Positions 6,293 through 29,944 of a stretch of DNA of 32,000 bases are shown here, one piece after another (position 1 is the first letter of the stretch; each line of letters begins with the position of its first letter). The position numbers and the translations under genes were made by a program. Source of the stretch: Geotalea uraniireducens Rf4 (lineage in GTDB: Bacteria > Desulfobacterota > Desulfuromonadia > Geobacterales > Geobacteraceae); assembly GCF_000016745.1 (NCBI RefSeq), contig NC_009483.1, positions 4,170,001 through 4,202,000 of the forward strand, written 5' to 3'. Under the pieces are notes generated by a model that was not told the origin of the DNA, searched no databases, and saw only the letters and a list, made by a program, of their open reading frames with translations.

Positions 6293-6400
6293 TTAGTAAA
6301 CCCCGCAGATGCCGTCGATTGCGAGCTCTTCAACCTGGATCTCTTCCAGAATCCGTGGCTCCTCATTACATGTTTCGTTTGTCTGTTTTTCAGTTTCCAT
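6293..6400 (-). CDS. mftA: Mycofactocin precursor peptide MftA (35 aa), absent from the supplied ORF track
   Basis: Manual reverse translation from ATG 6400 to TAA 6293 gives METEKQTNETCNEEPRILEEIQVEELAIDGICGVY. The C-terminal IDG.CGVY is the hallmark of MftA. AAGGAG lies 7 nt upstream of the ATG. Confidence 0.85.
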   Translation of the reverse strand: METEKQTNETCNEEPRILEEIQVEELAIDGICGVY

Positions 6401-6465: not shown

Positions 6466-6481
6466 TGCAACGCCGATGCCA
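6466..6481 (-). promoter_or_regulatory. sigma54 (-24/-12) promoter for the mftA operon
   Basis: The minus strand reads TGGCAT-CGGCG-TTGCA with correct GG-N10-GC spacing. It lies about 66 nt upstream of the mftA ATG. Confidence 0.7.
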
Positions 6482-6621: not shown

Positions 6622-6646
6622 TCCACAACGGGGATTTTATCTACAC
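6622..6646. promoter_or_regulatory. Candidate enhancer (UAS) site TCCACAACGGGGA plus an ATCTACAC half-site
   Basis: It lies about 148 bp upstream of the -24 GG of the mftA promoter. It matches 11 of 13 positions with TCCACACTGGGGA at 16694-16706, and resembles sites at 18215-18227, 23990-24001 and 24012-24023. Confidence 0.5.
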
Positions 6647-6952: not shown

Positions 6953-8212
6953 TCATCCGAAGTACTTCCTGATGCAGGCCCCCAGCTTCCCCCGCAACAG
7001 TCCCTCATCCTCGCGGCAGAGCTCTTCGTAAAAGGACGCGGCATGTTCCAGAAAAAGATCCGCAATGGCCGGATCGAAGTGGGTTCCCCTTGATTCCCGG
7101 ATAATCCCTGTCGAAACGTCGAAGCTGAAAGGTTTTTTGTAGGGACGCCTGGAGGTAAGGGCATCAAACACATCAGCTACGGCAAATATGCGTGCGTTGA
7201 GCGGAATGGCTTCCGCCGTCAGCCCCCCCAGGTAACCGCTACCGTCAAATTTCTCATGATGGCAGCGAACCACATCAACCGCATCCTTCAGCCAGTCATA
7301 GCTACAGACAATGTCCTCGCCGTGCCTCACGTGGGTCTTCATTATCTCGAATTCCTCATCGGTCAACTTTCCCGACTTGAGGAGGATCGAATCCGTGATG
7401 GCGATCTTTCCCACATCATGCAGGAAGGCCCCCTTGATCAGCCCCTGCATGGCAGTGTTCGAGAGCCCTAACTTCTCCCCGAGGCGTACCGAGTAGATCG
7501 TCACCCGGTAGTTGTGGATATTGGTGTCGCTGTCTCGTTTGGCGATGGCACTTCCCAGCACCTCCAACATACCGATATTAGCCTGCGCCAGAATGTGCGA
7601 GTAATCGATGAGTTTGCGGTTGAGCCGGATTATGAGCGGATACAGCGATAAGCTTGTCACGAAAATTACCAGCACAAGCAAGATGAGAGACCAGAGGGTT
7701 TGGCGTTTTATCTGCGTTATGATCTCTTCGGGCGCATGATAAATCCCTTCCATGTAACCGAGTTTGGTTCCCGTGCGGCTATTAATCGGGACAAATACCC
7801 TCAGGTAGGTCTCATTGCCCACCATCATCTTCTGGCGGCGCACTCCCCCCTTCCGGGCAAAGTCGGAAGTATGCTTGGGAAGCCTGGTTTCCACCGCTTT
7901 GGCAGAAGGTTTTACCACCTCGGCGATTTTGTTCGAGCCGGCGTCATAGAATTCGACCACGATGAAGTTGCCGCGGTCAAATATGTCATGAATCTTACGG
8001 TTGAGAAGCGCAAGGGTCTGCCCGGAAGGGAATCCCAGATAGGTGGTAAACTCGGCGGAGTAGTTCGCGGCCTCGGTTTCGGCCATATTAACAACGTGAT
8101 TGTCCAGTCGGGCATTGCCGAAATAATGGACCAACCCGCCGATCAATACCGACAAGACGAGCCAGACGGCCGCAAGCCTGAGTATCAGCCAGCGGTGGAG
8201 GTTATCAAACAT
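6953..8212 (-). CDS. Membrane-anchored sensor with a C-terminal HD-GYP domain (c-di-GMP phosphodiesterase type)
   Basis: 419 aa with two hydrophobic segments flanking a periplasmic-looking region. The HD motif is FLHDVGKI and the signature is HHEKFDGSGYLGG. Confidence 0.85.
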   Translation of the reverse strand: MFDNLHRWLILRLAAVWLVLSVLIGGLVHYFGNARLDNHVVNMAETEAANYSAEFTTYLGFPSGQTLALLNRKIHDIFDRGNFIVVEFYDAGSNKIAEVVKPSAKAVETRLPKHTSDFARKGGVRRQKMMVGNETYLRVFVPINSRTGTKLGYMEGIYHAPEEIITQIKRQTLWSLILLVLVIFVTSLSLYPLIIRLNRKLIDYSHILAQANIGMLEVLGSAIAKRDSDTNIHNYRVTIYSVRLGEKLGLSNTAMQGLIKGAFLHDVGKIAITDSILLKSGKLTDEEFEIMKTHVRHGEDIVCSYDWLKDAVDVVRCHHEKFDGSGYLGGLTAEAIPLNARIFAVADVFDALTSRRPYKKPFSFDVSTGIIRESRGTHFDPAIADLFLEHAASFYEELCREDEGLLRGKLGACIRKYFG

Positions 8213-8268
8213 TTATGGGTGCCCTCCTCATGTTTCCGGTTGTTTGGAGAAGGCGAGCAGACCGGCCG

Positions 8269-8685
8269 TCAGGATCCGGCCCCCCCGTTCTTCTGGAGAA
8301 ACGCGGCGAACTCCATGTCGATGCGGCTGATATGTTGAATCAACCAGGCGACCAGTGTCTGGTTTGTCTGGATAACAAGCGGCAACGTTGCCCCTTCCCT
8401 CCTGAACTGGGATTCCAGCCGATCAACGTCCTCGGTGAAGCGTGTGTGCTGCGCTTTGTGCGCATCATACCCGGGGTAGTTATGCCTGAGCTGGAGCCGC
8501 TCCTCGGCGGCAAAATGGGATTTGATATAGTCATCGAGAAACAGCAGGAGCCGCAGCACCTCATCCCTCCCTTTACCTTCGTTGCATGCGCTCAGCAGGG
8601 AGTCGAACCGGCTGAACAGCTCTTTGTGCTGATTGTCGATTTCCGCCACCCCGGTCGCCAGATTGTTATTCCATTCGATAGACAT
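8269..8685 (-). CDS. Bacteriohemerythrin-like protein
   Basis: 138 aa starting MSIEWNNNLATGVAEIDNQHKELF. It carries H....E, H...H and H....D spacing (IKSHFAAEE, HKAQH, LIQHISRID) typical of hemerythrin cation-binding domains. Confidence 0.85.
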   Translation of the reverse strand: MSIEWNNNLATGVAEIDNQHKELFSRFDSLLSACNEGKGRDEVLRLLLFLDDYIKSHFAAEERLQLRHNYPGYDAHKAQHTRFTEDVDRLESQFRREGATLPLVIQTNQTLVAWLIQHISRIDMEFAAFLQKNGGAGS

Positions 8686-8708
8686 GTAGTTCCTCCTTGT
8701 TTGGTTTA

Positions 8709-9326
8709 TTAAATTGATTCGTTCCTAGGTACGACATGTTTCCAGTTTACAAGATCGAGCCAGAAATATTCCTTCTGCGACAACTTCAGGAAGGCGGCCA
8801 CCACCTCCGGCATGAACATTCCTCCGGACTGAGCCTCGATCTGCCGGCAGATACGTTTCCTCTGGCCGAGAATGTTTCCCGATGTGCGCAGCAGCACCGC
8901 CACCCTGTCGGCCAGGTGCAGGATATGACTACCGAAAGGCGCCCCGCCACCCTGCCGTGGCCGGCCGTCGCCGTCATCCGACCTGACATGGTGGAAACGG
9001 ATTATGTCTGCCACGCCGGCTAGCGGCTCAAAGCTGCTCAGCAGGCGCCACCCCATCTCGGCATGGCTATGGGGATTGTGAAATTCGAACTGCATGGTTT
9101 GCATCCGCTCCTGACCGGATAGTGCACCGATGTCATGAAGCTTGCCGGCCAGAAGCAGCTCGTTGCGATGCTTCTGCGGCAACCCCAGCTGGGCGGCCAC
9201 GCTGTAGGCCACATAGGCGACCCGTTGGTGGTGATTGAAGAGCGCGGGGTTTACCAGATCAATAACGTCCGACAGACAGGTGATCAGATCGGAAAGCTGG
9301 ATGTGCACTTTCTTTTTAACGAGCAT
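8709..9326 (-). CDS. HD-domain protein with a degenerate HD-GYP signature
   Basis: 205 aa with HHQRVAYVA and KLHDIGAL. It has FHHVRSDDGDGRP where HD-GYP enzymes have HHE.xDGSGYP. Confidence 0.7.
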   Translation of the reverse strand: MLVKKKVHIQLSDLITCLSDVIDLVNPALFNHHQRVAYVAYSVAAQLGLPQKHRNELLLAGKLHDIGALSGQERMQTMQFEFHNPHSHAEMGWRLLSSFEPLAGVADIIRFHHVRSDDGDGRPRQGGGAPFGSHILHLADRVAVLLRTSGNILGQRKRICRQIEAQSGGMFMPEVVAAFLKLSQKEYFWLDLVNWKHVVPRNESI

Positions 9327-12609: not shown

Positions 12610-14016
12610 TCACCAATGGCTGCGCCCGCCAGGGTCGAAACTCGGCTGACTGCCGCCACTTGTACCACGCTTATAGTAGTCCTTGGAATCATAGGTTTCC
12701 GCTGCTTTGGCTTCCTGCAGGCGTTTTTTGTCAATCGGATCTGCCCGGTCGGCATATATGTCTCGCAGCAGGTTTTCGACGACCATGCTCAGATCTTCCA
12801 CCGTTTTTACTACCTCCACCTTGTCGCAATATGCGCCGTAGATATCCATCAGACAGTCGCCGCGACTCCAGGTATCACGATCTTCCGGGGTAAGCCAGAG
12901 CATATAGCGGGCCTTCTCGCGGATCTCGTCCAGCACCCAGTCGTTGGCCTCGTCGTAGTTGTTGCGTGCATCTCCCAGGATGATAAAGGCCGGTCTCCCC
13001 CGCAGGTTTTCCAGATACCTTTTCTTGAAGTTCAGAAACACCTGGCCGAAACTGCTATTTTCATCCAGATCAACGATGTCCCCCTTGTCAATGGTTTCCA
13101 TCAGGTCGTTGACAGGCATGTTTGCCAGCATTTCTGTGATTTCCGCCACTTCCCGATTGAAGATGAAACTGCGGACATCCAGCATCTGATTATGCAGGGT
13201 ATGAAGAAGCAGCAGCATGAAGCGGGAGGCATGGCTCACGGAAAAGCTGACATCACACAGAACCACCAGTCGCGGTTTTTCCCTCCGTTTTCGACGTAAT
13301 GCCACCTGGAACGGCACCATGTCGTGACGGTAATTTTTCTGGATCGTCTTGATGACGTGGAGTTTTCCGCGATTCTGATTATTCTTCATCCGTTTCATAT
13401 CTTTGCGCAGACGCAGCATCATGCGGGAAACCACGTCCTGCATGGCGGCCTGCTCTTCAGGCGTAAAGGTGACGCCCCTGTTGGTGCTGTTGCTCTTGTT
13501 AAGCTCGATCGTGAGCGGATTCTGCGTATAGCGTCGCGACGGCCGGGGCGCTTTCGACTTTCCGCGGTACCCCTTCATCTGGACAACTATTTCAATACCA
13601 TCCGTGTCGTCCGGATCAATCTCTGTCAGGCTTTTCAGCTCGGCTAAATCTTCCGGATTGATATCGCTGTCAAGTTTGAGCAGCGGGCCGTTCTCATCGT
13701 GATCGTCACCCGGCAGTTGGTCGAGGTAGTTGAATTCCCCCTCCATGCCGATGATGGCGGCGTCCATGAGATCGGGAATATCGACGTCCGGGTCGACAGA
13801 CTGGAACCGGCTGAAAAAACGGTTGAAGACCTCATTGAATACCGGAATGTCATTGACATTCTTCACCAGAGTCAGACGCAGGAGCCGCCGGGTCAACCGG
13901 CGCCGTTCCATTCCGGCCAGCGCCAGGGCCTGGACCGCATCCAGGCTTTCACCTGGTGATACGCGGATGCCGCTTTCACGAAGAGCGGCGACGAAACGGG
14001 TGATTATTCGTTCCAT
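12610..14016 (-). CDS. VWA-domain protein of the CoxE type (partner of the MoxR/CoxD ATPase)
   Basis: 468 aa. The N-terminus is RFVAALRESGIRVSPGESLDAVQAL. A MIDAS-like VVLCDVSFSVS is present, along with the C-terminal block AFIILGDARNNY. It starts 2 nt after the MoxR stop. Confidence 0.75.
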   Translation of the reverse strand: MERIITRFVAALRESGIRVSPGESLDAVQALALAGMERRRLTRRLLRLTLVKNVNDIPVFNEVFNRFFSRFQSVDPDVDIPDLMDAAIIGMEGEFNYLDQLPGDDHDENGPLLKLDSDINPEDLAELKSLTEIDPDDTDGIEIVVQMKGYRGKSKAPRPSRRYTQNPLTIELNKSNSTNRGVTFTPEEQAAMQDVVSRMMLRLRKDMKRMKNNQNRGKLHVIKTIQKNYRHDMVPFQVALRRKRREKPRLVVLCDVSFSVSHASRFMLLLLHTLHNQMLDVRSFIFNREVAEITEMLANMPVNDLMETIDKGDIVDLDENSSFGQVFLNFKKRYLENLRGRPAFIILGDARNNYDEANDWVLDEIREKARYMLWLTPEDRDTWSRGDCLMDIYGAYCDKVEVVKTVEDLSMVVENLLRDIYADRADPIDKKRLQEAKAAETYDSKDYYKRGTSGGSQPSFDPGGRSHW

Positions 14017-14018
14017 GG

Positions 14019-15065
14019 CTAGCTCATTTCCTGCACAGCCAGTTCCGTAACCTTCTGCAGGTCTGTCTGGTGTTTGGCAATCACGCCGACGGTATTGGCT
14101 ACCACCTCCGGTGTAAGCTGTGTCGCCTTCATGATCGAAAGCACCTGTGCCCAGTCAAGGGTTTCGGAAACACTGGGGGGCTTGCGCAGATTCAGTTCGC
14201 GGGCCTTACGCAGGAATGCCACCATCTGCTGTGCCAGATCCCCGCAGAGGTCGGGGAATTTTGCCCGGACGATCGCTACTTCCCGCTCCAGCTCCGGATA
14301 ACCGATATAGAGATACAGGCAGCGCCGGCGCAACGCGTCGGAGATCATCCGCGTGCCGTTACTGGTCAGGATCGTCAGCGGCTTTCTCTTGGCCTCGATT
14401 ACCCCCAATTCGGGGATCGAAACCTGAAAGTCGCTCAGACACTCCAGAAGCAGCGCTTCGAATTCATCGTCGGAGCGGTCGATCTCATCGATAAGCAACA
14501 GCGAACGTTTTTCGGACAAGAAACTGCGCAGAATCGGTCGCTGTACCAGGAAATTTTTTGAAAAAAACAGGCTCTCTTCGGCAGAAAGACGCTCGACGGC
14601 TTCCCGCAGGTCAGCTGATACGGAGAGGTAGGTATCTAGCTGGGTACGCAGCAATTGGGTATAGAGCAGCTGTTTGCCGTACTCCCAATCATAGAGTGCC
14701 TTTCCCTCGTCGATCCCTTCGTAGCACTGCAGTCTCACCAGGGGAAAATCCAGGGCAGAGGAGAGGGCCTTGGCCAGGCCGGTCTTCCCTACACCGGGAG
14801 GGCCTTCGATCAGGATCGGCTTCTCCATGTGGATGGCCAGAAAAACGGCGGTGGCGATGGCATCGTCGGCGATGTAGCCACTTGTGTTGAGAAGATCCTT
14901 AACCCCTTGTTCGGTAATCATGATGGCCTCGTAACGTTGAATTTTATATCTGTTAGTACTGTCTTTCATTGCAATCTTTGCGCCGGCAAGAGAACATTGT
15001 TTTAGATATTCAGATGCGGTGCGGACAGCTAATAAAATAAGCCGCTGGCGCCCGGTGAGGGACAT
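14019..15065 (-). CDS. MoxR/CoxD-like AAA+ ATPase. The true start is probably the internal ATG at 14969 or 14921.
   Basis: Walker A is LIEGPPGVGKTGLAKAL and Walker B is LLLIDEIDRSDDE. The size and the VWA partner downstream fit the MoxR family. Confidence 0.85.
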   Translation of the reverse strand: MSLTGRQRLILLAVRTASEYLKQCSLAGAKIAMKDSTNRYKIQRYEAIMITEQGVKDLLNTSGYIADDAIATAVFLAIHMEKPILIEGPPGVGKTGLAKALSSALDFPLVRLQCYEGIDEGKALYDWEYGKQLLYTQLLRTQLDTYLSVSADLREAVERLSAEESLFFSKNFLVQRPILRSFLSEKRSLLLIDEIDRSDDEFEALLLECLSDFQVSIPELGVIEAKRKPLTILTSNGTRMISDALRRRCLYLYIGYPELEREVAIVRAKFPDLCGDLAQQMVAFLRKARELNLRKPPSVSETLDWAQVLSIMKATQLTPEVVANTVGVIAKHQTDLQKVTELAVQEMS

Positions 15066-15124
15066 CTTCCCTCCGGGGCCAGCGGCATAAAATTACAAAG
15101 TCAGGCAACGAATTACTATAATAA

Positions 15125-16330
15125 TTACATGCACTGGTGGAAGATGCCGATCATATCCTGCAGACCGGTATCGGTTGGGTTGCCCTCTGTGCAGATATCG
15201 TTCACGGAGAAACGCGACAGGCCTTCTACGTCTTTTTCAAGCAGACCGAGATCCGTGAAGGTCTTGGTGATGCCCAGATCGGCTTTCAGTTCCAAACAAG
15301 CCTGAATAAATGCTTCGCCAGCTTTCATATCGGACATTCCGCTTACGTCAATACCGGCAGCCTGTGCCATCATCCTGAAGCGCTCCGGGCAGGCCGGCAG
15401 GTTGAACTTCATGACCGGACCGAGACCGATGGCATTGCAGAGACCATGAGGAGCATCGTACATACCGCCCAGAGCATGGGCCATACTGTGAATAAGGCCA
15501 AGACCGGCGCTGTTGAAGCTGTAGGCGGCGGCCATTTCAGCCCATACCATCGCCTCGACAGCTTTGTCGTTGTTTCTGTTCATTGCCGATTGACGCAGGT
15601 TGCCGAAGATCAGCGAAATGGCGCTCAGGCCGGGGCCGTATGCGGAGACAACACCCAGACGGGATGTGATTGCTTCAACGCCGTGAGCAAGGGCATCCAT
15701 GCCGGTGTAACCGGCCAGGTCGCCAGACATACACTGGTGGATCAGCGGGTCATTGACGGATTTGCTGGGTGTACAGTTGGGATCGAACAAGGCCATCTTG
15801 TACTTCTTGTCGGTATGGTTGATGATCGAGAAGCAGGACACTTCCGAACCGGTACCTGAAGTGGTGTTGATGGCAAGCTGGGGAATCGTGTTGGCCTTGG
15901 TTGCCTTGAAAGCACCTTCAAAGCTTCTGACATCCTGACCGTCATGGCTGTGAACGAGTTTGATGGCCTTGCAGCAGTCGTGGGAGCTGCCGCCGCCGAG
16001 GCTGATGATACCGTCGAATTTGCCGGCGGCCAATACCTTGGCGCCTGCCATGACTTCATGATCTTTCGGGTTCGGTGTAACTTTGTCAAACACCTCGGAA
16101 GCAACCCCGGCAGCCTTCAGTACGCCCTGGATTGTCTCGACAATGCCGGTGCCGCGCAGGCCGGTAGTTACGATCAGCGCATTGGTCATACCCAGCGCCT
16201 TGGCGTCATTGCCAACCATCGTATGTGCACCCCAACCGACATTTACGGAAGGATATGCGTGCATCATCTTGATCGGGTATTCCAGCCTTTCGTTCTTCAG
16301 GGTCCGTTTTACATCTTTGTTGTGAGACAT
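15125..16330 (-). CDS. Iron-type (group III) alcohol dehydrogenase, paralog 1 (ADH1)
   Basis: 401 aa with GGGSSHDCCKAI and metal-site histidines (DALAHGVE, LIHSMAHALGGMYDAPHG). An AAGGAGGAAG RBS is present. The N-terminal region (YPIK...GWGAH...LIVTTGLRGTGI) reminds me of the nicotinoprotein methanol/NDMA-dependent subgroup, but this is not verified. Confidence 0.88.
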   Translation of the reverse strand: MSHNKDVKRTLKNERLEYPIKMMHAYPSVNVGWGAHTMVGNDAKALGMTNALIVTTGLRGTGIVETIQGVLKAAGVASEVFDKVTPNPKDHEVMAGAKVLAAGKFDGIISLGGGSSHDCCKAIKLVHSHDGQDVRSFEGAFKATKANTIPQLAINTTSGTGSEVSCFSIINHTDKKYKMALFDPNCTPSKSVNDPLIHQCMSGDLAGYTGMDALAHGVEAITSRLGVVSAYGPGLSAISLIFGNLRQSAMNRNNDKAVEAMVWAEMAAAYSFNSAGLGLIHSMAHALGGMYDAPHGLCNAIGLGPVMKFNLPACPERFRMMAQAAGIDVSGMSDMKAGEAFIQACLELKADLGITKTFTDLGLLEKDVEGLSRFSVNDICTEGNPTDTGLQDMIGIFHQCM

Positions 16331-16535: not shown

Positions 16536-16551
16536 AGCAAGTTAGATGCCA
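16536..16551 (-). promoter_or_regulatory. sigma54 promoter for ADH1
   Basis: The minus strand reads TGGCAT-CTAAC-TTGCT, about 205 nt upstream of the ATG at 16330. Confidence 0.65.
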
Positions 16552-16693
16552 ATAGAAACATTGGTTTATTTTTGCCACTTTTAGGCGCTTTGCTGTGATT
16601 TTAAGAATATAGCCAGCCGGGCATTGCGGGGAATTATGAAACATTTTTTTAAACAATAGCCCTGTTTATGCCTCAGCAGCGCTATGGATATTA

Positions 16694-16706
16694 TCCACAC
16701 TGGGGA
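16694..16706. promoter_or_regulatory. Candidate UAS site TCCACACTGGGGA
   Basis: It lies about 150 bp upstream of the ADH1 -24 element. It is near-identical to the site at 6622-6634 and in the same orientation relative to the gene. Confidence 0.5.
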
Positions 16707-16797: not shown

Positions 16798-17895
16798 TCA
16801 AGAGTTAAAGGAATTTTGTCGATGTATATTCCGTCTCAGCTCACACCGGTCGTCTGGCGCCAGAAAGTCTCCACGGCTCCCCCACGCCCGCCCCATGCAT
16901 CCACCGGCGCAGGCGAACCTGCCGGGACACTCCCGGCACTCCGCTATTGCGTCCACTCGGCAGAGGCTTGTCTGCAGCAGGGATGACCAGAGAGAAGCTC
17001 CCTCGGCAAAGGCCACGGCGAGATTTTTCCCCCATACCCCTGAAACCGAGTAATCATCGGTATGGCACAGCACACAGGGGTACAGTCTGCCGCCCGGTGT
17101 GATATATGGGTTTTCGACAAACGTGCAGCATTCCGAACGTGGGGCATCTTCCTTGCGCCACTCCAGGGCTGCCACATTGCCGATTTTATCATAGAGATCC
17201 CGGAAGCAATGGTCGGTATCGTAGCGGCGCAGTAATCGCCGATACTGATCCAGACCGGCAGGAACGACCAGAGATTCTTCTTCTGCCCGCCCGCAAAGGA
17301 CAAGGGAGCCGGTGACTACGGAACCGACACCCAGCTCGGCTGCAAGCTCGAGAAGAGCAGGAATCTCATCCAGATTGTGGCGCATCTCCGTAAAGAACAG
17401 CGTAATATGCCGCGCCAACCCTCCCCGGACGAGCAGCCGCACCCCTGCCAGCGCCCCAGCAAAGGCCCCTTCCCCTCTCACGAGGTCATGGGTCGGCGCC
17501 GCAGCCCCATCAAGGCTGACCTGAACAGATAGCCGCGGAAACTCCAGTTCGCGCAGCACAGATACTGCATCGTCATCGAACAACATGCCGTTGGTCTGAA
17601 TTGAGACGTCGCATAACCCGATTGAGCGGCCGAACTGCATGAGTTTCAACCAGGCGGGATGGCAGAGCGGCTCCCCGCCGGTGAAGCGAATCCCCGCGCC
17701 GCCAAGCGCCACGAACTCCTCCATCAGCCGGCGCAGCGTCCGTTCCGGCACATGAGCAGCAGCAGAGGACCCACCCGCTTCGACCCAGCAATGCCGGCAG
17801 GTGAGGTTACAGGCGCCGGTTATGGCGAGCGTCAACGTTTTAGGGGGACGTACTCCCGCGCGTGATAGGATTTTCACAGCTTCAGATGGCAACAT
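16798..17895 (-). CDS. Radical SAM/SPASM-domain protein with no assigned substrate
   Basis: 365 aa. The rSAM motif is GACNLTCRHC. The SPASM motifs are CCTFVENPYITPGGRLYPC, CRECPGRFACAGGC and DDRC. Confidence 0.85.
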   Translation of the reverse strand: MLPSEAVKILSRAGVRPPKTLTLAITGACNLTCRHCWVEAGGSSAAAHVPERTLRRLMEEFVALGGAGIRFTGGEPLCHPAWLKLMQFGRSIGLCDVSIQTNGMLFDDDAVSVLRELEFPRLSVQVSLDGAAAPTHDLVRGEGAFAGALAGVRLLVRGGLARHITLFFTEMRHNLDEIPALLELAAELGVGSVVTGSLVLCGRAEEESLVVPAGLDQYRRLLRRYDTDHCFRDLYDKIGNVAALEWRKEDAPRSECCTFVENPYITPGGRLYPCVLCHTDDYSVSGVWGKNLAVAFAEGASLWSSLLQTSLCRVDAIAECRECPGRFACAGGCMGRAWGSRGDFLAPDDRCELRRNIHRQNSFNS

Positions 17896-17940
17896 TAGTT
17901 ATCCTAAGCGGACAAGCCGAAACCAAAATATTTTTATTTC

Positions 17941-18040
17941 ACGCAACGACGCGACGACGCAACGTTTTAAAACCATGAACCATAATTTTAAAATGCCTTT
18001 CGTCGCGTCGTCGCGTCGTCGCGTCGTCGCGTCGTCGCGT
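17941..18040. repeat. Octamer arrays in inverted orientation: (ACGCAACG, ACGCGACG, ACGCAACG), a 36-nt AT-rich spacer, then (CGTCGCGT)x5
   Basis: Read directly. Five perfect CGTCGCGT units span 18001-18040. Three complementary units span 17941-17964, and the two variant units would give G-U pairs in RNA. The locus lies inside the predicted 5' leader of the rSAM/SPASM gene. Confidence 0.85.
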
Positions 18041-18064
18041 GAGTCATGCCTTGCTTTAACAAAG

Positions 18065-18080
18065 TGCAACGCCGGTGCCA
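18065..18080 (-). promoter_or_regulatory. sigma54 promoter for the rSAM/SPASM gene
   Basis: The minus strand reads TGGCAC-CGGCG-TTGCA, a perfect consensus. It differs from the mftA promoter at one base and has the identical CGGCG spacer. Confidence 0.7.
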
Positions 18081-18200
18081 AGCAGTAAAACAGCGGTTGC
18101 CTTGCTTTACGACTGTTTTCAAAGGATTTTGAGGCAGGCCATCAACGACGGACTATGGCGTTCGGTAGTTGTCTAAACCGCGTTACTGCAAATGGTTACA

Positions 18201-18241
18201 AAATGGGTATTTTATCCACAGTGTAGATATATTACCCATTT
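18201..18241. promoter_or_regulatory. 41-bp palindrome containing the UAS-like core ATCCACAGTGTAGAT
   Basis: The outer arms are AAATGGGTA and TACCCATTT. The inner core is TCCAC-AGT-GTAGA. The centre is about 143 bp upstream of the -24 GG at 18078-18079. Confidence 0.55.
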
Positions 18242-18449
18242 AGTCCCCGAAAAATGACATGAAAGTGGCCGGATTTTACAGAAAGCGCCTACAGCGAGGA
18301 AAAATCATGGACTAAATATAAGAATTGAGGCGGCACAGCGAAGACTTATCCTCGCCCTCAAAAGACAAGGCCCCAAACAGTGTAGAGAAATGCAACAGTG
18401 AAACAGGAAGGTGTGCGATCAACGCAAAGCAATACGGACAGACAGTTTT

Positions 18450-18887
18450 CTATGCATCGAGACGGCAGATCAAGGCGCCGACCGAAACGGTCCCGCCTTT
18501 GATGACCCTTGCGAAGATCCCCTCTTTAGGCATGACGCAGTCCCCTGCCTGATAAAAAATAGCGCAGCGGTTGTGACACTCCTTGCCGATCTGTGTTACC
18601 TCGATGACGGCATCGCCCACTGCCAGCCGGGTGCCGATCGGCAGGGCTACGAGGTCGAGACCGCGGGTCGTGATGTTTTCGGCAAAATCGCCGGAATCGA
18701 CATCGAGTCCCAAGGCCCGCATCTTCGCAATGCTCTCCGTAGCGAGCAGGCTCACCTGTCGGTGCCAATCACCCGCATGGGCATCGCCGACTATGCCGTG
18801 GTTTTCCTTCAGTTCTACAGCGTCTACCGGCGTTTTGCGCTGGCCTTTCTCTTTGCTGATACAGACAGCGACAACAGTTGGTGTCAT
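18450..18887 (-). CDS. MOSC-domain protein (molybdenum cofactor sulfurase C-terminal domain family)
   Basis: 145 aa with the pattern VGDAHAG..HRQVSLL...GDFAENITT.G......IGT.L.VG.A..EVTQ.GKEC. It is in moaA context. Confidence 0.75.
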   Translation of the reverse strand: MTPTVVAVCISKEKGQRKTPVDAVELKENHGIVGDAHAGDWHRQVSLLATESIAKMRALGLDVDSGDFAENITTRGLDLVALPIGTRLAVGDAVIEVTQIGKECHNRCAIFYQAGDCVMPKEGIFARVIKGGTVSVGALICRLDA

Positions 18888-18904: not shown

Positions 18905-19015
18905 GTTCGAGGTTCGAGGTTCGAGGTTCGAGGTTCGAGGTTCGAGGTTCGAGGTTCGAGGTTCGAGGTTATTTTTGCTTTTCAACATCGAACCTCGAAC
19001 GTAGAACGTAGAACC
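18905..19015. repeat. Heptamer array (GTTCGAG)x9, perfect over 63 bp, then a 20-nt AT-rich spacer and an inverted degenerate array (ATCGAAC CTCGAAC GTAGAAC GTAGAAC)
   Basis: Read directly. It fills the moaA-MOSC intergenic gap (19027 to 18888). Confidence 0.9.
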
Positions 19016-20057: not shown

Positions 20058-21431
20058 CTACACGGCGAGGCCGTAACGTTCCAGCTTAGTGTAAAGGGTC
20101 TTGCGGTCGATTTCAAGTACCTTCGCAGCCTTGCTCTTGTTCCCCTCCAACTTCTCGAGCACCTTCTGGATATAGTCACGTTCGACGACCCAGAGCGGCA
20201 GCGGCAATACGTCGGGCAAACCGGTGACGGCAAACGACGGCGCAGTTTTGGGCGGCGAAAACGGCAGCAGGTCGGAAGAAATAATCTGGTCGGTTGCCAG
20301 GATACTGGCACGGCGGATGGTGTTCCGCAGCTCCCTTACGTTTCCCGGCCAGGAATAGGCGCAGAGGGCAGCCATTGCTTCCTCGGAGATCTCCCAGTTG
20401 GCGCTGCCGCTCTCGTTGGCGCTTTTAAGAAAATAGTACGAAAGCGGTATGATATCTTCCGGCCGCTCCCGCAAAGGGGGGATGTTGATGGGGAGGAGGT
20501 TGATGCGGTGGAACAGGTCTTCCCGGAACTCGCCACGATTCACGCAATCCTCGAGCTTTTTGTTGGAAGCGAAGACGAACCGGACATCTACGCTGATGTC
20601 GTGGTTCCCCCCCATGCGTCGGAAGGTGCCGGTCTCCAGGATACGGAGAAGCTTCACCTGTACATCCAGCGGCATTTCCGATATCTCGTCCATGAACAGG
20701 GTACCGGTGTCGGCCAATTCGAAGAGACCGGCCCGACCTTTATTTGCGCCGGTGAAAGCCCCCTGCACATGGCCGAATAGTTCGCTCTCGGCGGTGTTGG
20801 CGCTGAGCCGGCCGCAATTGACCGTTACAAAAGGCTTGTTGGCCCGACGACTGGCGTCGTGGACGGCCCGGGCGAACAGTTCCTTGCCGGCGCCGCTCTC
20901 TCCGCAGATGAGGACATGCTCGTCGGTGGCCCCCCAACGCCGGACGGTTTCAAGTACCTTTTGGATGACCTGGCTTTTGCCGACAATACGGTGTTGGTCA
21001 AGCTTGCTGATTTCCAGTTTCAGATTGATATTTTCCAGACGCAGGCGGTTTTTTTCATTGGCCTTGTCGATCACCATCTCCAGTTCATCCAGCTTGACCG
21101 GCTTGGTAAGGTAGTCATACGCCCCATACTTGATGCATTCGACAGCCGTTTCGATGGTACCGTGGCCGGTAAAGACGATAACCTCGGGGATTGTCGATTC
21201 GGTCCGCATCTGCCTGAGAACCTCCACCCCGTCCATCCCCGGCATCCTCATGTCGAGAAGAACGACATTGAAAACCTCCTGCCGGTATTTGTCGAGTCCT
21301 TCTTCACCGTCAGACGCTGATTCGACCTTGTAGCCGCTCCGGGTAAGTTCCATGTGAAGGAGCTCCCGTAATGGTTTGTCATCTTCTATAACAAGAATTT
21401 TTGCCTCTTTGCGCGTTACTACTGTTGACAT
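20058..21431 (-). CDS. NtrC-family sigma54-dependent response regulator (REC + AAA+ + Fis-type HTH)
   Basis: 457 aa. The REC domain shows ILVIEDD...VVLLDMRMPGMDG. Walker A is GESGAGKE. GAFTGA is present (HVQGAFTGAN). The C-terminal HTH is NKSKAAKVLEIDRKTLYTKL. Confidence 0.93.
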   Translation of the reverse strand: MSTVVTRKEAKILVIEDDKPLRELLHMELTRSGYKVESASDGEEGLDKYRQEVFNVVLLDMRMPGMDGVEVLRQMRTESTIPEVIVFTGHGTIETAVECIKYGAYDYLTKPVKLDELEMVIDKANEKNRLRLENINLKLEISKLDQHRIVGKSQVIQKVLETVRRWGATDEHVLICGESGAGKELFARAVHDASRRANKPFVTVNCGRLSANTAESELFGHVQGAFTGANKGRAGLFELADTGTLFMDEISEMPLDVQVKLLRILETGTFRRMGGNHDISVDVRFVFASNKKLEDCVNRGEFREDLFHRINLLPINIPPLRERPEDIIPLSYYFLKSANESGSANWEISEEAMAALCAYSWPGNVRELRNTIRRASILATDQIISSDLLPFSPPKTAPSFAVTGLPDVLPLPLWVVERDYIQKVLEKLEGNKSKAAKVLEIDRKTLYTKLERYGLAV

Positions 21432-22627
21432 GCTGGAAGCCTCACCGTGAATTTAGATCCTTCTCCATGCTTACTTTCTACGTGGATCTCGCCGCCGTGC
21501 TTCTTAATAATATTATAGGTAACAGCCAGGCCGAGGCCAAGCCCCTGGCCCACATCTTTCGTGGTAAAGAACGGATCCCAAATCTGGTCCATGAGAGATG
21601 AAGGGATGCCGCACCCGCTATCGCAGATAGTGGCGGTCACCACTCCGTTCTGATCGAAGGTGGCAATTTTTATCATCCCGGGTCCGTCAATGGCCTGGAG
21701 AGCGTTCATAGTCAGGTTCATGAAAACCTGTCGTAGACCGGCCTCATCCCCCTTAATCATAGGCAGGTCCGGCTGCATGGATTCCTGTATCTCGATTTTT
21801 TCATTGCGGGCCTTATGCCGAACCAGTTCCAGGACCTCATTCAGGATCTTATTGAGATCCACAAACCCGACCGAACCCTCCGATTTCCGACTGAAACTCA
21901 GCAGACTGTCAATAATCCCCTTGCACCGGTAAGACTCGCGGATTATGACCTCCAGATATTTCTTGAAATCTTTGAGCCGGTTGTCCTCCACCAGTCCAGT
22001 CTCATCGCGGAACCTTCGCAGCAAGGCTTCGGCGTAACCGGCCACGGAGGTGAGCGGGTTGTTGATCTCGTGCGCCACACCAGCGGCAAGCATGCCGATA
22101 CTCGACATTTTCTCGGCCTGCACAAGTTGGAGCTCGTTAAGCCGCTTTTCGGTAACATCCCGGATGAATACGAGCGCGCGTGTTTGTTCGTTGGGATCTT
22201 CAATCGGGGTCGCCGTGACGTCGAAATAACGGCTTTCTCCGATCCCTTTCGTCGTTGTAAAGGAAATCTGCATGCTCTTGCCGGCCAAGGCCTGTTCTAC
22301 CGGGCATTGCTGGGGCGAATGGTCGCTTTCGGGGTGAAAAAGCGCCCTGCAACTCCGCCCGACAAGGGTTTCCGTGGGGAACAGCCTGGGACATACGTGA
22401 TTTCGATGCTGAATGCACCCATTATGATCGTAGATGACCACGCTGTCACTAATGGCATCAAAGACAGCCTGGAGTTCATTGGTTTTGATCCGCAAACCAA
22501 GGTTGGCTGCCTCCAATTCCTGGATTTTCTGTTTGACTTCCGAATAGAATCCGATCTTTGAGCTTTCAAGGCCCAGCAGACGTTCGAGATTCGGTTCGTC
22601 AATCAGTGTTCGCTTTGCTTCTCCCAT
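21419..22627 (-). CDS. PAS sensor histidine kinase (cognate to the adjacent regulator)
   Basis: The H-box is [18 protein letters not shown]. HATPase boxes are NLTMNALQA, DSGCGI and GQGLGLGL. The preferred start is ATG 22627, one nt after the ADH2 stop. The track start at 22669 would overlap ADH2 by 41 nt. Confidence 0.88.
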   Translation of the reverse strand: MGEAKRTLIDEPNLERLLGLESSKIGFYSEVKQKIQELEAANLGLRIKTNELQAVFDAISDSVVIYDHNGCIQHRNHVCPRLFPTETLVGRSCRALFHPESDHSPQQCPVEQALAGKSMQISFTTTKGIGESRYFDVTATPIEDPNEQTRALVFIRDVTEKRLNELQLVQAEKMSSIGMLAAGVAHEINNPLTSVAGYAEALLRRFRDETGLVEDNRLKDFKKYLEVIIRESYRCKGIIDSLLSFSRKSEGSVGFVDLNKILNEVLELVRHKARNEKIEIQESMQPDLPMIKGDEAGLRQVFMNLTMNALQAIDGPGMIKIATFDQNGVVTATICDSGCGIPSSLMDQIWDPFFTTKDVGQGLGLGLAVTYNIIKKHGGEIHVESKHGEGSKFTVRLPACQQ

Positions 22628-22628
22628 C

Positions 22629-23792
22629 TCAGTAGGCCCTTTCGAGAATTGCCAGGAGGTCTTTTTCATCGGCCTGGCGTGGTGAAGTCACGATGCAAAC
22701 GTCTTTGAGAGCCTTTCGGGCCAGTTCCGGCAAATCCTTGCGTACAACACCCAGACTTCTCAGGCTCCGGGGCGCACCAGCGGCTTCGAGCATGGAAACC
22801 AGCGTTTCCTGAACCACTTCCGACGCAGTGTTAGTGCTCCCGTCAGTCCGGTGGCCGAGGCCCCAGGCCAGTTCCGGCAGTTTTTCCGTTACGACCGGGA
22901 TGTCATACTTGATCACTTCCGGCAGCAGTACCGCATTGATGCTGCCATGGTTCGCGTCGTAGAGTCCGCCGATCGGGTGAGCCAGGGCATGGACAATGCC
23001 GAGAAGGGAATTGGAAAACGCCATCCCGGCGTGAAGGCTGGCCCTGGCAAGATTCTCCAGGTCGGCTGCTTTTCGCTCCCTGACTGCCTCGACCAAGCTG
23101 GTCGAAACAAGGCGTAATGCCTTAATGGCATGGACGTCGGTGAGGGAGGTGGAAGCCACTGAAAAAAAGGCCTCAAGCGCATGGCTGAGAGCGTCGGTTG
23201 CAGTAGTGCAGACATACTCGTCAGGAAGGGTTTCAAGGGTATCCGGGTCGGTCAGGCTGATGTCGGGAGCGACGCAGCGGCTCATGATGGTCAATTTGCA
23301 GTGCTGCTCGGTGTCGGTGATGATGGCGAACTGGGAAACATCGGAACCGGTCCCGCAGGTGGTCGGACAAAGGACAAGCGGAGGAAGTGGACGGAAAATC
23401 TTGTCGGACCCTTCGAAATCCTTGATCCGCCCGCCATTGGAAACGAGTATGGCGATACCTTTGGCCGCATCCATGGCGCTCCCCCCTCCAAGCCCCACAA
23501 TGACATCGGCCCCGTGACGAATATATTCCAGGGCTCCAGCCTCCACCTCCACATCCTTCGGATTCGGCGTGATATTATCGTAGAAAATCACCTCAAGCCC
23601 CGCATCCATGATGTTTTTGATGGCCTTGTCCACCCATCCGGCGCTGAAGAGCCCCTGATCGCTGACCAGAAAAACCTTGTGACCACCCAGGCGTCGGGCG
23701 CACGAGCCGATCTGGCTCAGCAGCCCTCTGCCGAAGATGATCTCCGGCACTTCGAATTTGCAGTGATGAAGATTGCTCTCCACATTAACCAT
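22629..23792 (-). CDS. Iron-type alcohol dehydrogenase, paralog 2 (ADH2)
   Basis: 387 aa with GLGGGSAMDAAKGI, DALSHALE and IVHALAHPIGGLYDANHG. An AAGAGG RBS is present. Confidence 0.9.
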   Translation of the reverse strand: MVNVESNLHHCKFEVPEIIFGRGLLSQIGSCARRLGGHKVFLVSDQGLFSAGWVDKAIKNIMDAGLEVIFYDNITPNPKDVEVEAGALEYIRHGADVIVGLGGGSAMDAAKGIAILVSNGGRIKDFEGSDKIFRPLPPLVLCPTTCGTGSDVSQFAIITDTEQHCKLTIMSRCVAPDISLTDPDTLETLPDEYVCTTATDALSHALEAFFSVASTSLTDVHAIKALRLVSTSLVEAVRERKAADLENLARASLHAGMAFSNSLLGIVHALAHPIGGLYDANHGSINAVLLPEVIKYDIPVVTEKLPELAWGLGHRTDGSTNTASEVVQETLVSMLEAAGAPRSLRSLGVVRKDLPELARKALKDVCIVTSPRQADEKDLLAILERAY

Positions 23793-24177: not shown

Positions 24178-24193
24178 TGGCACTCACGTTGCA
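24178..24193 (+). promoter_or_regulatory. sigma54 promoter, perfect consensus, facing the porin operon
   Basis: TGGCAC-TCACG-TTGCA on the plus strand. It lies about 450 nt upstream of the porin ATG at 24647. Confidence 0.65.
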
Positions 24194-24646: not shown

Positions 24647-25891
24647 ATGAAAAAATTAGCATCATTAGTCGCAGCGCTGCTCCTGGCACTAACCGCAATA
24701 CCCTCAGCCGAGGCAGCGTTCGTCATCGGTGGAGAAAACGGCTGGCAGTTGAGCACGGACGGTATCGTCGACGTTTTCTCCGTCTATCAGTCTACCAGTC
24801 CGAAGCCTTCAGGTGACAGGTTTACAACCTTTCTCAGCGGTTCTCCGGATCAGTTCCAGAATTTCGGGGTGAAGGTAGGGCTTCTGCCGTCGTTAATCGC
24901 ATTCAACATCAAGGCCCCCACCGTCAATGGGGTCGACTCGAACGTACGGGTCGGTATCTATCCGAGTATTCAGAATAAGAACCAGGACACCAGATTTGAA
25001 GTCAATCCCAACATCGATTTCCGGGAATTCTACTACACCGCAAAGGGGACATACGGCGAATTGCTTGCCGGCCGTGCCCTGAACCTTTACCAGGCGAAAA
25101 ACATCCTGACCGACATGACGCTCCTTACGGCAGGCGTTGTTCCGGCACCCGGCACCTCCACGACCCTGGGCCATATCGGCTACGGCTACCTCTACACCAA
25201 CTTCGGCCCCCAGATCCGTTACACCACTCCCGATCTTAACGGCGTCAAGGTGGCCTTCAGTGTCAACGAGCCTTACAAGATCAGTTCCGATACCGCCAAG
25301 ACCAACACCCCGCGCCTCGAAACCGAGATCTCCTACGCCACGGTCCTGAACGGCGGCACTACGCTGCAGGCTTGGGCGTCCGGCCTCTTCGAGACTGCAA
25401 CCCGCAGTAAAGCGGCTGGCGTAGCACGTCCGGGTGAGCAGAACCAATCCATCGGCGGTGCGGCCGGCATCGAAGCCGGCTTCGGCGGCGTCGATCTTAT
25501 GGCGTCCGGTTACGCCGGCGAGGGGCTCGGCATGATCAGTGCGCAGGACGGCGATGCGTTCGGTTCCTCATCGACGGATGCCGCCGGCAAGGAGCGGACC
25601 CATTTCGGCTTCCTGGTCCAGGCGACCTACAAGTTGACTCCCGATATCAAGATCGGAGCCAACTACGGGCAAAACCGCCAGGTAGAAAGCGATGACGACA
25701 AGACCAAGCGCGGCGTAGGCGGTTCCTTCTCCCCCATGAAGAAACAGGAAGCGGCAGTGGGCATGGTCACTTACAACTTCAACAAGTTCACACAATTCAT
25801 CGTTGAGTACGCCTATGCCCAGAACACCTGGCATGACCGCGCCACGCAGCATTCCAACAGCGTTGCGATAGGCACGATGTTTTACTGGTAG
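24647..25891 (+). CDS. Outer-membrane beta-barrel porin
   Basis: 414 aa. The signal peptide is MKKLASLVAALLLALTAIPSAEA. The sequence has alternating, aromatic-rich strands and a C-terminal ...GTMFYW. A GAAGGAGG RBS is present. Confidence 0.75.
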   Translation: MKKLASLVAALLLALTAIPSAEAAFVIGGENGWQLSTDGIVDVFSVYQSTSPKPSGDRFTTFLSGSPDQFQNFGVKVGLLPSLIAFNIKAPTVNGVDSNVRVGIYPSIQNKNQDTRFEVNPNIDFREFYYTAKGTYGELLAGRALNLYQAKNILTDMTLLTAGVVPAPGTSTTLGHIGYGYLYTNFGPQIRYTTPDLNGVKVAFSVNEPYKISSDTAKTNTPRLETEISYATVLNGGTTLQAWASGLFETATRSKAAGVARPGEQNQSIGGAAGIEAGFGGVDLMASGYAGEGLGMISAQDGDAFGSSSTDAAGKERTHFGFLVQATYKLTPDIKIGANYGQNRQVESDDDKTKRGVGGSFSPMKKQEAAVGMVTYNFNKFTQFIVEYAYAQNTWHDRATQHSNSVAIGTMFYW

Positions 25892-25959
25892 GCCGGCCCT
25901 GAGACGGGTTGAGCAACGCCTTTAACGGCAAACTCTCAGTAAAGAAAGGAAGTCAGACA

Positions 25960-26232
25960 ATGCCTAAATATGTCATCGAACGTGAACTTCCGGGAGCGGG
26001 ACAATTAACCGCTGATACGCTGCAGGCCATTTCCCAGAAATCATGCGGCGTGCTCAAGGGACTTGGCCCACAGATTCAGTGGGTACAGAGCTACGTCACC
26101 GATAATAAGATTTACTGCATCTACATAGCGCCTAATGCAGAGATCGTGCTGGAGCACGCCAAACAGGGAGGCTTCCCCGCCAACAGCGTGGCCGAGGTGA
26201 GAACCATTATCGATCCAACCACTGCCGAGTAG
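25960..26232 (+). CDS. DUF4242-family small protein
   Basis: Trimmed to ATG 25960 (AAGGAAG RBS). The product is MPKYVIERELPGAGQLTADTLQAISQKSCGVLKGLGPQIQWVQSYVTDNKIYCIYIAPN...GGFPAN...IIDPTTAE. This matches my memory of DUF4242 conserved blocks. Confidence 0.7.
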   Translation: MPKYVIERELPGAGQLTADTLQAISQKSCGVLKGLGPQIQWVQSYVTDNKIYCIYIAPNAEIVLEHAKQGGFPANSVAEVRTIIDPTTAE

Positions 26233-26304
26233 CATCAAAGAAACCATTCGACATAATCTGGTCGAATTAACGCAGAAAAATTTTGCTATAATAAGGAGAT
26301 AACA

Positions 26305-26835
26305 ATGACGTTAGCACTGCTTCTTTTGATTTGCATGATGTGGGTTCCGGTCGGGTTGCTTTTCCTGGGCTCGGGTGAGGCCAAAAGTACCGGTTTTGTT
26401 ACCGCTGTTGTGGGTGTAGTCGTTATCATAGGCGCTATTCTTCAGGCAGCAGTTTTTACCGATCCATTTACCGCCGGGCTGCTTTTCGTATTCGGCGTCC
26501 TTTATCTGCAGACTGCTCATGCTCTTCTGACTGGGCTGGAAGATATGCGTAGTGTCGGAAACGGCGCATTGGTTGTTGCCGTTGTATGTGCCGTATATGC
26601 GTATCTGTTTTTCACCGGCGGCGGCGTGAAGCCCGATGGCAAGACAATCATCGGCGTAACTCCCTACCTGGGATTCATGAACGTTACGTTCACCGTTATT
26701 TGCTTAACCGTTGTCGGCGTGACTTATGGCAAGGTCAACGCCAAGGTTGCTGCGTGGATGTTCCTTGTCCTGAGCTTCACCTGTCTCTTTGTTCCGGCTA
26801 TCGGCCTTTTGGGATACGGAAAACTTCCGTTCTAG
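26305..26835 (+). CDS. AmiS/UreI-family inner-membrane channel (6 TM)
   Basis: 176 aa and six hydrophobic helices. The blocks KSTGFVTAVVGVVVII and GLLFVFGVLYLQTAHALLTGLED resemble the UreI/AmiS blocks KSTAVMNFFVGGLSII and GLLFGFTYLYAAINHTFGLD. Confidence 0.6.
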   Translation: MTLALLLLICMMWVPVGLLFLGSGEAKSTGFVTAVVGVVVIIGAILQAAVFTDPFTAGLLFVFGVLYLQTAHALLTGLEDMRSVGNGALVVAVVCAVYAYLFFTGGGVKPDGKTIIGVTPYLGFMNVTFTVICLTVVGVTYGKVNAKVAAWMFLVLSFTCLFVPAIGLLGYGKLPF

Positions 26836-29680: not shown

Positions 29681-29761
29681 GTTTTATGAGTTTTATGAGT
29701 TTTATGAGTTTTATGAGTTTTATGAGTTTTATGAGTTTTATGAGTTTTATGAGTTCGATGA
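29672..29761 (+). repeat. Nonamer tandem array (GTTTTATGA)x9 perfect plus one degenerate unit. The first unit contains the hdrC stop codon.
   Basis: Read directly with a period of 9 nt. Units start at 29672+9k for k=0..8, followed by GTTCGATGA. Confidence 0.9.
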
Positions 29762-29782
29762 GTTATGGTGTTGAACCCATGT

Positions 29783-29944
29783 AACTCAATAAACTCAATA
29801 AACTCAATAAACTCAATAAACTCAATAAACTCAATAAACTCAATAAACTCAATAAACTCAATAAACTCAATAAACTCAATAAACTCAATAAACTCAAAGA
29901 ACTCAAAGAACTCAAAGAACTCTATGAACTCTACAAACTCAAAA
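29783..29944 (+). repeat. Nonamer tandem array of 18 units (162 bp): (AACTCAATA)x12, (AACTCAAAG)x3 and 3 degenerate units
   Basis: Read directly. The reverse complement of the unit (GAGTTTATT in register) matches the first array unit GAGTTTTAT at 7 of 9 positions. The two arrays therefore form an imperfect long inverted repeat. Confidence 0.9.

Follow-up and report, generated by a model that had tools for sequence, protein, structure and literature searches.

We find that a 365-aa radical SAM/SPASM protein of Geotalea uraniireducens Rf4 represents a discrete, small and unnamed enzyme family, outside every NCBIfam model, that is physically linked to mycofactocin (mft) genes across Desulfobacterota and in one Spirochaetota metagenome-assembled genome (MAG). 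The gene lies on the minus strand of a 32,000-nucleotide stretch of contig NC_009483.1 (positions 4,170,001 to 4,202,000), which we call the window, and we use rSAM-X as the name of the family (Table 1). We consider it rather probable that rSAM-X works in the mycofactocin pathway, and give roughly even chances to the narrower reading that it serves an anaerobe-type mycofactocin system as a dedicated accessory enzyme. A previous sequence-only reading of the window had described the gene as an orphan and offered three roles for it, namely a second maturase acting on MftA or its product, a maturase of a neighbouring enzyme, or part of a system with its substrate encoded elsewhere. The gene is instead part of a strongly conserved multi-gene block and has relatives beside mftF; among the three roles, the mycofactocin link gained the best support, from mftF adjacency and from mftABC on the same contig in many genomes.

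Linkage of rSAM-X to mycofactocin genes

The comparison set consisted of 79 genome loci encoding rSAM-X relatives, viewed 10 kb to either side of each match, together with further contigs (numbered up to L091). In the distant members of the family (35–50% identity), the gene sits inside the mft operon. The order in L086 and L090 is mftA-B-C, OYE, OYE, etfA, cytochrome c, HdrD-like, etfB, rSAM-X, mftF and a second SPASM enzyme gene, rSAM-Y, with gaps of 4–18 bp or overlaps between genes. L068 has etfB, rSAM-X, MftF (322 bits; model cut-off 280) and rSAM-Y, and L072 reads mftABC, OYE2, etfA, fixCX, etfB, mftF, rSAM-X, moxR and VWA. Looser arrangements occur in L063 (mftF ~2 kb from rSAM-X, with mftCBA and an aldehyde oxidoreductase (AOR) on the same locus), in L089 (rSAM-X 7–8 kb from mftC and beside a kinase/activator pair, an iron-type alcohol dehydrogenase (Fe-ADH) and an aldehyde dehydrogenase) and in the Spirochaetota MAG, L088 (OYE, OYE, etfA, cytochrome c3, HdrD-like, etfB and rSAM-X, with a zinc-type alcohol dehydrogenase (Zn-ADH) and an SDR nearby). 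Across lineages, the broadest association of rSAM-X is with mycofactocin genes, especially mftF and etfB, and the neighbourhood or same-contig linkage with mftA, mftB, mftC or mftF is, with exceptions, consistent enough for a probable mycofactocin accessory. The dehydrogenase near rSAM-X varies from Fe-ADH to Zn-ADH with SDR (L088) to none (L086, L090), so that rSAM-X is tied to the cofactor system and not to one enzyme. Given this association with mft genes and with no single dehydrogenase, the substrate of rSAM-X is likely MftA or something derived from MftA.

In Geobacterales and Desulfuromonadales, a conserved block runs from an ErcA-like Fe-ADH through a PAS kinase, a sigma54 regulator and, in about half of the loci, a moaA-MOSC pair to rSAM-X, the Fe-alcohol dehydrogenase ADH1, moxR, a VWA/CoxE gene and a kinase; mftA-B-C-OYE2 come next wherever the flank is long enough. 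In the window and in L001, L008, L024, L051, L053, L064, L065 and L085, mftABC follow rSAM-X on its own strand, 8–11 kb downstream, and in L046/L091 one contig carries rSAM-X and, 22 kb off on that strand, the mft block. Beyond the window, the mycofactocin-associated redox module of OYE2, etfA, fixC and fixX runs on to etfB and mftF, after which come a FIST protein, an aldehyde oxidoreductase of the tungsten type and a ThiS/MoaD-like gene. We rejected an operon fusion of rSAM-X with the upstream regulator genes as not clearly the case, the upstream gaps being mostly 100–450 bp (L085, where rSAM-X starts 26–27 bp after moaA, is the exception). Together, the regulator module, Fe-ADH, moxR, VWA, mft and AOR genes apparently form a conserved sigma54 alcohol regulon in Geobacterales.

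This block also accommodates a different role, in which rSAM-X would act with MoxR and the VWA protein as a maturase or activase of the nicotinoprotein ADH1, either modifying the enzyme or helping to install its metal or tightly bound nucleotide. The order rSAM-X, ADH1, moxR, VWA is kept in ~50 Geobacterales loci, L072 has moxR-VWA directly after rSAM-X, and the anSME-like fold described below offers a precedent for protein modification. We nevertheless regard this role as unlikely, as rSAM-X occurs with mftF in L086, L090, L068 and L063 with no Fe-ADH, moxR or VWA gene within 10 kb, its neighbours in L088 are Zn-ADH and SDR, and L015 carries it without a downstream ADH1. Where the two genes do adjoin, they are separated by 300–800 bp that hold ADH1's own promoter, and the genera that share ADH1 at 90–97% identity share rSAM-X at only 50–70%. 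The identity of ADH1 reflects either unusually strong conservation or recent spread. ADH1 also carries an NPKDHEV stretch resembling the site that Haft tied to mycofactocin-dependent Fe-ADHs.

The optional moaA-MOSC neighbours similarly raise the idea of a helper for the Mo/W cofactor of the AOR in the same pathway. AOR genes lie near rSAM-X or mftF in L080/L081, L091, L063 and L086, and moaA-MOSC directly precede rSAM-X in the half of the loci noted above, most tightly in L085. Since those neighbours are not always present, since L090 has no AOR within 10 kb, and since rSAM-X scores only 69 bits against the tungsten-cofactor maturase model (TIGR04317; cut-off 380) and 65 bits against MoaA (TIGR02666; cut-off 284), we hold such a function to be highly improbable. 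Genes for tungsten-type aldehyde:ferredoxin oxidoreductases recur beside mft and rSAM-X genes, often with ThiS/MoaD-like and ThiF genes (Table 1). Their recurrence suggests a pathway from alcohol through aldehyde to acid, which would account for the extra moaA-MOSC copy.

The partner rSAM-Y is a second unnamed SPASM family of ~380 aa with a CIAKCIMC motif. Its gene overlaps the mftF stop in the Desulfobacterota operons and follows the VWA gene of the block in seven Geobacterales loci (L012, L023, L027, L030, L034, L053 and L058); none was found in the window or in L080/L081. In L087, rSAM-Y adjoins rSAM-X as its sole recognisable partner, without nearby mft genes. Such loci, along with some rSAM-X genes in unrelated neighbourhoods, would fit an independent two-enzyme system of rSAM-X and rSAM-Y, with a substrate encoded elsewhere and merely co-regulated with alcohol metabolism. 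Against this stand the absence of a conserved small open reading frame (ORF) beside rSAM-X in more than 60 loci and the presence of mft or mycofactocin-dependent genes nearby in most loci, and we judge an independent system very unlikely.

The rSAM-X protein family

The protein belongs to the radical SAM superfamily by Pfam Radical_SAM (PF04055; 68.4 bits against a cut-off of 29.5), and the complete CxxxCxxC motif given for it in the sequence-only reading corresponds to C29, C33 and C36. Its full SPASM domain likewise stood up to comparison: the pattern C257-x11-G-x4-C274 ... C320-x2-C323-x5-C329-x3-C333 ... C351 has all seven cysteines invariant in the family alignment of 40 sequences, and SPASM membership is established by this pattern and by the fold, although the Pfam SPASM model (PF13186) stays under threshold on the protein of the window while matching some other family members. 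A GGE motif at residues 73–75 is also invariant in the alignment, and the family-specific invariant motifs, which include TEMxHN and EW, mark a difference from MftC. The AlphaFold model (pLDDT 91, pTM 0.89) superposes over its full length on anSME (TM 0.74 in both directions, ~375 aligned columns) and has ~17 residues before the core, with no N-terminal extension fit for an RRE. rSAM-X is thus a compact three-cluster radical SAM/SPASM enzyme of anSME-like architecture without an RRE domain.

Assignment to a curated NCBIfam family, judged by the score against the cut-off of each model, gave 70 model matches, all far below cut-off. The top N-terminal match was ScmF (TIGR04251; 111.6 bits against 400), with AhbD (TIGR04545; 103 against 500) and NirJ (TIGR04051; 83 against 515) covering only the N-terminal half, and the best full-length match was MftC (TIGR03962; 94.9 against 265). 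GeoRSP (TIGR04303; 83.5 against 400), PqqE (TIGR02109; 55.5 against 381) and the SCIFF maturase (TIGR03974; 52.6 against 425) scored lower. The subfamily classification by hidden Markov models that the sequence-only reading had proposed thus yielded no heme, molybdenum cofactor or pyrroloquinoline quinone housekeeping family above cut-off. Sequence and fold searches of the PDB with rSAM-X returned generic radical SAM relatives only. A profile search run exhaustively over 1.84 billion representatives gave about two dozen full-length clusters at 50% identity with scores of at least 350 bits, and other families, mostly 440–470-aa enzymes with N-terminal extensions, reached at most 250 bits; this drop in score is what sets rSAM-X apart as a discrete, small family.

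Comparison with known systems places rSAM-X near several of them and inside none. MftC shares the radical SAM core and SPASM domain, the lack of a fused RRE and the same gene clusters, but the true MftC of the window scores 353 bits with its own model and is only 29% identical to rSAM-X (E = 6e-33), which falls below the cut-off of that model. The enzyme anSME (PDB 4K36-4K39) is the best whole-chain structural match and is likewise compact, three-cluster and RRE-free; however, identity is 16–18% with a sequence E of about 1e-7, which places rSAM-X outside that family, and neither the window nor the related loci examined showed a sulfatase gene. In the PqqE/PqqD pair, a SPASM enzyme builds a redox cofactor out of a ribosomal peptide with the help of a separate small chaperone, as proposed for rSAM-X, but the PqqE score is below cut-off and pqq genes are absent. 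The paired cassettes of ScmE/ScmF and GeoRSP resemble rSAM-X in that it travels with a second SPASM enzyme, rSAM-Y, but the scores are far below 400 and no hallmark partner genes were seen.

The claim that no PqqD/RRE gene and no precursor ORF flank the gene extends to the family. When the small ORFs of more than 60 loci were compared all against all, no conserved precursor or other small ORF emerged beside rSAM-X, only shadows of known genes plus one ribbon-helix-helix-like ORF, and no flanking PqqD/RRE gene was found in these loci. In one marine subgroup, that 54-aa ORF (MSRVAE.PKKHVLSFRVS..EWKLLKKA) separates MOSC from rSAM-X and looks like a small regulator rather than a precursor peptide. 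The nearest RRE protein in the window is MftB, ~11.5 kb away. With neither a fused or adjacent RRE nor an adjacent precursor, rSAM-X falls outside the RRE-dependent maturases that act on ribosomally made peptides modified after translation (RiPPs); that it has no precursor and RRE of its own is explained if MftB is available to the enzyme and its substrate is MftA-derived.

Control region and features of the window

A sigma54-type promoter is predicted upstream of rSAM-X from its GG/GC elements and their spacing, its upstream site and the activator gene nearby (20058-21431). As the sequence-only reading had it, this promoter, TGGCACCGGCGTTGCA, differs by a single base from that of mftA, TGGCATCGGCGTTGCA. 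Searching the window for TGGC-N7-TTGCW gave six sites against 0.75 expected, a number reached in none of 100 shuffles, and four of the six precede mftA, ADH1, rSAM-X and a porin/AmiS-like operon, so that the rSAM-X promoter is apparently one of at least four sigma54 promoters in one local regulon. The motif TGTRGATAAWAT occurs free of mismatches only upstream of the three minus-strand promoters, 140 bp from that of rSAM-X, 148 bp from that of ADH1 and 164 bp from that of mftA; the upstream sites therefore lie at similar distances, not at the same distance as had been claimed. Together with the excess of promoter sites, this restriction to three promoters indicates that the observation is real and exceeds chance. 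At rSAM-X, the 41-bp palindromic site described before sits inside a 47-bp palindrome containing TGTGGATAAAAT, with arms of 23 nt each (18198-18220 and 18222-18244) that are 83% complementary, which is probably an activator binding site. mftA and ADH1 each have another half-site like the motif ~18 bp after it, in direct repeat, whereas the arrangement at rSAM-X is palindromic; no comparable palindrome was found at mftA.

The weight that had been laid on this promoter and upstream site did not survive the locus comparison. The ADH1 promoter is present in all 50 loci (about -215 from the ATG), with its upstream motif in 34 of them, mostly 145–149 bp 5' of the promoter, and that of mftA in 8 of 8, whereas a sigma54 promoter precedes rSAM-X in only 3 of 64 orthologue loci by the strict pattern and 9 of 64 by a relaxed one. 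Sigma54 control as a trait of the rSAM-X family was thus rejected. The two 92%-identical relatives (L083 and L084) retain the promoter and upstream site, which are local to the lineage of the window. Without the insertion described next, the promoter lies 63 nt from the ATG at rSAM-X and 65 nt at mftA, and the similarity to the mftA region reaches ~15 nt upstream of the -24 element of rSAM-X; both would fit an mftA-like control region having been recruited in this lineage. With its promoter and upstream site of the mftA/ADH1 type, rSAM-X would be co-induced with the cofactor precursor and the mycofactocin-dependent alcohol dehydrogenase, and in the genome of the window the adjacent module of ErcA-like dehydrogenase, kinase and sigma54 activator (20058-23792), probably an alcohol/aldehyde sensor driving the mftA, ADH1 and porin promoters, would induce rSAM-X together with mftA and ADH1.

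The leader spans ~170 nt between the -12 element and the ATG and does contain the octamer arrays reported in the sequence-only reading, as (CGCGACGA)x5 plus inverted copies, with a hairpin fold of -71 kcal/mol (z = -6). As a conserved regulatory leader they were rejected: the 107 bp involved are missing as one clean block in L083 and L084, the arrays were found in none of 90 related loci, and the element is a strain-specific insertion. Other intergenic stretches of the window hold short perfect or near-perfect tandem arrays of 7-mers, 9-mers (up to 18 copies) and a 37-mer, and the octamer array is a further instance of this genome-wide habit.

Two other groups of genes lie in the same region. 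After the fourth promoter come genes for a porin-like protein, a small protein like SCO4226 and a channel of the AmiS/UreI family (24647-26835); all three run divergently from the regulator module and are conserved in most loci. A bacteriohemerythrin and two HD-GYP/HD-domain proteins, encoded between the kinase and mftA (6953-9326), may give the regulon an input from O2/NO or cyclic di-GMP.

Table 1 Coordinates of features in the window and, where a locus number is given, in related loci.
Feature	Position	Strand	Basis or remark
rSAM-X coding sequence, 365-aa radical SAM/SPASM protein	16798-17895	-	ORF; Pfam Radical_SAM
Radical SAM cluster motif codons, C29-x3-C33-x2-C36	17788-17811	-	translation; invariant in 40 sequences
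SPASM region, residues 257-351, seven invariant Cys, two auxiliary clusters	16843-17127	-	Cys motif, fold
Inserted octamer inverted-array element, leader hairpin	17938-18044	-	locus comparison, tandem repeats, fold
Sigma54-type -24/-12 promoter of rSAM-X, TGGCACCGGCGTTGCA	18065-18080	-	pattern search
Palindromic upstream site with TGTGGATAAAAT	18198-18244	.	motif and palindrome analysis
Sigma54 promoter of ADH1	16536-16551	-	pattern search; 50/50 loci
Sigma54 promoter of mftA, TGGCATCGGCGTTGCA	6466-6481	-	pattern search; 8/8 loci
Fourth sigma54 promoter	24178-24193	opposite	5' of porin-like gene operon
Upstream motif TGTRGATAAWAT, further copies	16688-16699 (ADH1), 6634-6645 (mftA)		
ADH1, Fe-alcohol dehydrogenase related to NDMA-dependent methanol dehydrogenase	15125-16330	-	domain searches; downstream of rSAM-X in 50 loci
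moxR AAA+ ATPase	14019-15065	-	
VWA/CoxE-like protein	12610-14016	-	
MOSC-domain protein, optional upstream neighbour	18450-18887	-	
MoaA paralogue, optional upstream neighbour	19028-about 20011	-	
Sigma54-dependent response regulator	20058-21431	-	
PAS histidine kinase	21419-22669	-	
ErcA-like Fe-ADH	22629-23792	-	
mftA (...IDGICGVY)	6293-6400	-	
mftB	6037-about 6291	-	
mftC	5004-6047	-	MftC model 353 bits, cut-off 265
OYE2, redox module	3018-4979	-	
etfA, redox module	2014-3018	-	
fixC, redox module	719-2017	-	
fixX, redox module	about 444-722	-	
Other short tandem arrays	375-439, 18905-18970, 29672-29764, 29783-29942, 30823-30915		
rSAM-Y	L086 12739-13881; L090 12610-13755; L068 3962-5116; L087 8829-9974		
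AOR genes	L080 13916-15652; L081 9626-12134; L091 11600-15155; L063 about 14426-16261; L086 16842-18914		
Ribbon-helix-helix-like 54-aa ORF	L051 9579-9743; L053 9489-9653; also L055		conserved in subgroup

Candidate chemistry for mycofactocin in anaerobes

Mycofactocin biosynthesis is counted as solved for mycobacteria, from MftA to MftF. MftD reportedly used O2 as its oxidant in vitro. In the canonical steps from MftC-modified MftA (MftA*) to the keto-amide, MftE is a peptidase of the creatininase family and MftD an FMN dehydrogenase. Both were present in most but not all mft species in the survey that also listed Geobacter as an mft carrier (Haft 2011); the anaerobic carriers of mftABC and mftF were thus described in 2011 as missing part of the remaining genes. 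That paper and a G. pickeringii genome note were the only open-access literature found on mycofactocin in anaerobes. Using PF01070 (FMN dehydrogenase) as a proxy for mftD and PF02633 (creatininase family) for mftE, we found neither gene in ~45 kb of the window genome, in L086, L090 and L091, or in any other cluster seen. The clusters seen have mftA-B-C and mftF and keep MftC and MftF without the enzymes that turn MftA* into the keto-amide, and rSAM-X is therefore proposed for that conversion without O2.

Under this proposal, MftC would first form the cyclised Val-Tyr core on MftA, and rSAM-X would then act on peptide-bound MftA* presented by MftB, or on free AHDP. Its 5'-deoxyadenosyl radical would abstract the C-alpha hydrogen of the modified valine, for which sactisynthases and peptide epimerases provide precedent, the second electron would be taken off by the SPASM auxiliary clusters as in anSME, and the resulting (acyl)imine would be hydrolysed to the alpha-keto amide, premycofactocin. 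The enzyme anSME carries out an O2-independent two-electron oxidation via its SPASM clusters that ends in a carbonyl. The net effect would be to replace the MftD step, and possibly the MftE step too, without O2. In outcome this would equal MftD and MftE (core release and oxidative deamination to the keto-amide), with which rSAM-X shares no homology; the functional equivalence is putative. That rSAM-X performs the keto-amide-forming step is a tentative suggestion by analogy, and the specific version in which rSAM-X, perhaps with rSAM-Y, oxidatively cleaves the C-alpha–N bond of the MftC-modified peptide and so replaces both MftE and MftD is, in our estimate, doubtful.

With rSAM-X directly adjacent to mftF in L068, L086, L090 and L072, a late tailoring of mycofactocin, for instance on the glucose chain added by MftF or on the aromatic ring, is an alternative to redox-centre formation. 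The best PDB sequence and fold matches of rSAM-X include BlsE, a radical SAM enzyme that modifies sugars, which would suit such a role, but this likeness is generic at 68 bits, and the curated BlsE model gives 54 bits against a cut-off of 400. Late tailoring would, moreover, leave the redox-active product of clusters without mftD and mftE unexplained, and we rate it quite unlikely.

Several points weigh against rSAM-X as the accessory enzyme of an anaerobe-type mycofactocin system. The absence of mftD and mftE concerns clusters and not whole genomes, and the keto-amide mechanism, drawn by analogy, is candidate chemistry. The OYE2 flavoprotein, with FMN, Fe-S and ETF (electron transfer flavoprotein) partners, could equally be the O2-independent substitute for MftD; more likely, the OYE2/ETF/FixCX module is a route for reoxidation of reduced mycofactocin and a stand-in for MftG, which is missing from 25% of mftC genomes. 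In Geobacterales, rSAM-X is nearer to ADH1-moxR-VWA and moaA-MOSC than to mftABC, and these immediate neighbours keep the enzyme-maturation and pterin-cofactor readings alive. Seven loci carry rSAM-X without mft or ADH1 within 5–10 kb (L004, L005, L031, L036, L042, L045 and L087), and the reported mft carriers G. uraniireducens Rf4, Geobacter sp. M18 and G. pickeringii are not among the 79 loci, which does not imply absence of the gene; a search through MftF homologues brought up no records of these isolates either. In two of the seven loci, both Geobacteraceae MAGs (L004 3986-5023 and L005 3968-5002), rSAM-X is not part of the alcohol/mft block, and the gene after it codes for a ThiI-like PP-loop ATPase that bears a Cys-rich motif.

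Even if the proposed mechanism is wrong, the analyses define two unnamed, discrete SPASM families with clear genomic context and a sigma54 alcohol regulon of Geobacterales. If rSAM-X, perhaps with rSAM-Y, does provide the missing steps, this would add a new type of radical SAM reaction to cofactor biosynthesis, would explain where the redox-active mycofactocin that strict anaerobes use in oxidising alcohols comes from, and would offer a small set of candidate genes for heterologous production under anaerobic conditions. As the accessory enzyme of the pathway, rSAM-X would mark a variant, anaerobe-type mycofactocin system and make the question of how anaerobes finish mycofactocin a testable one.

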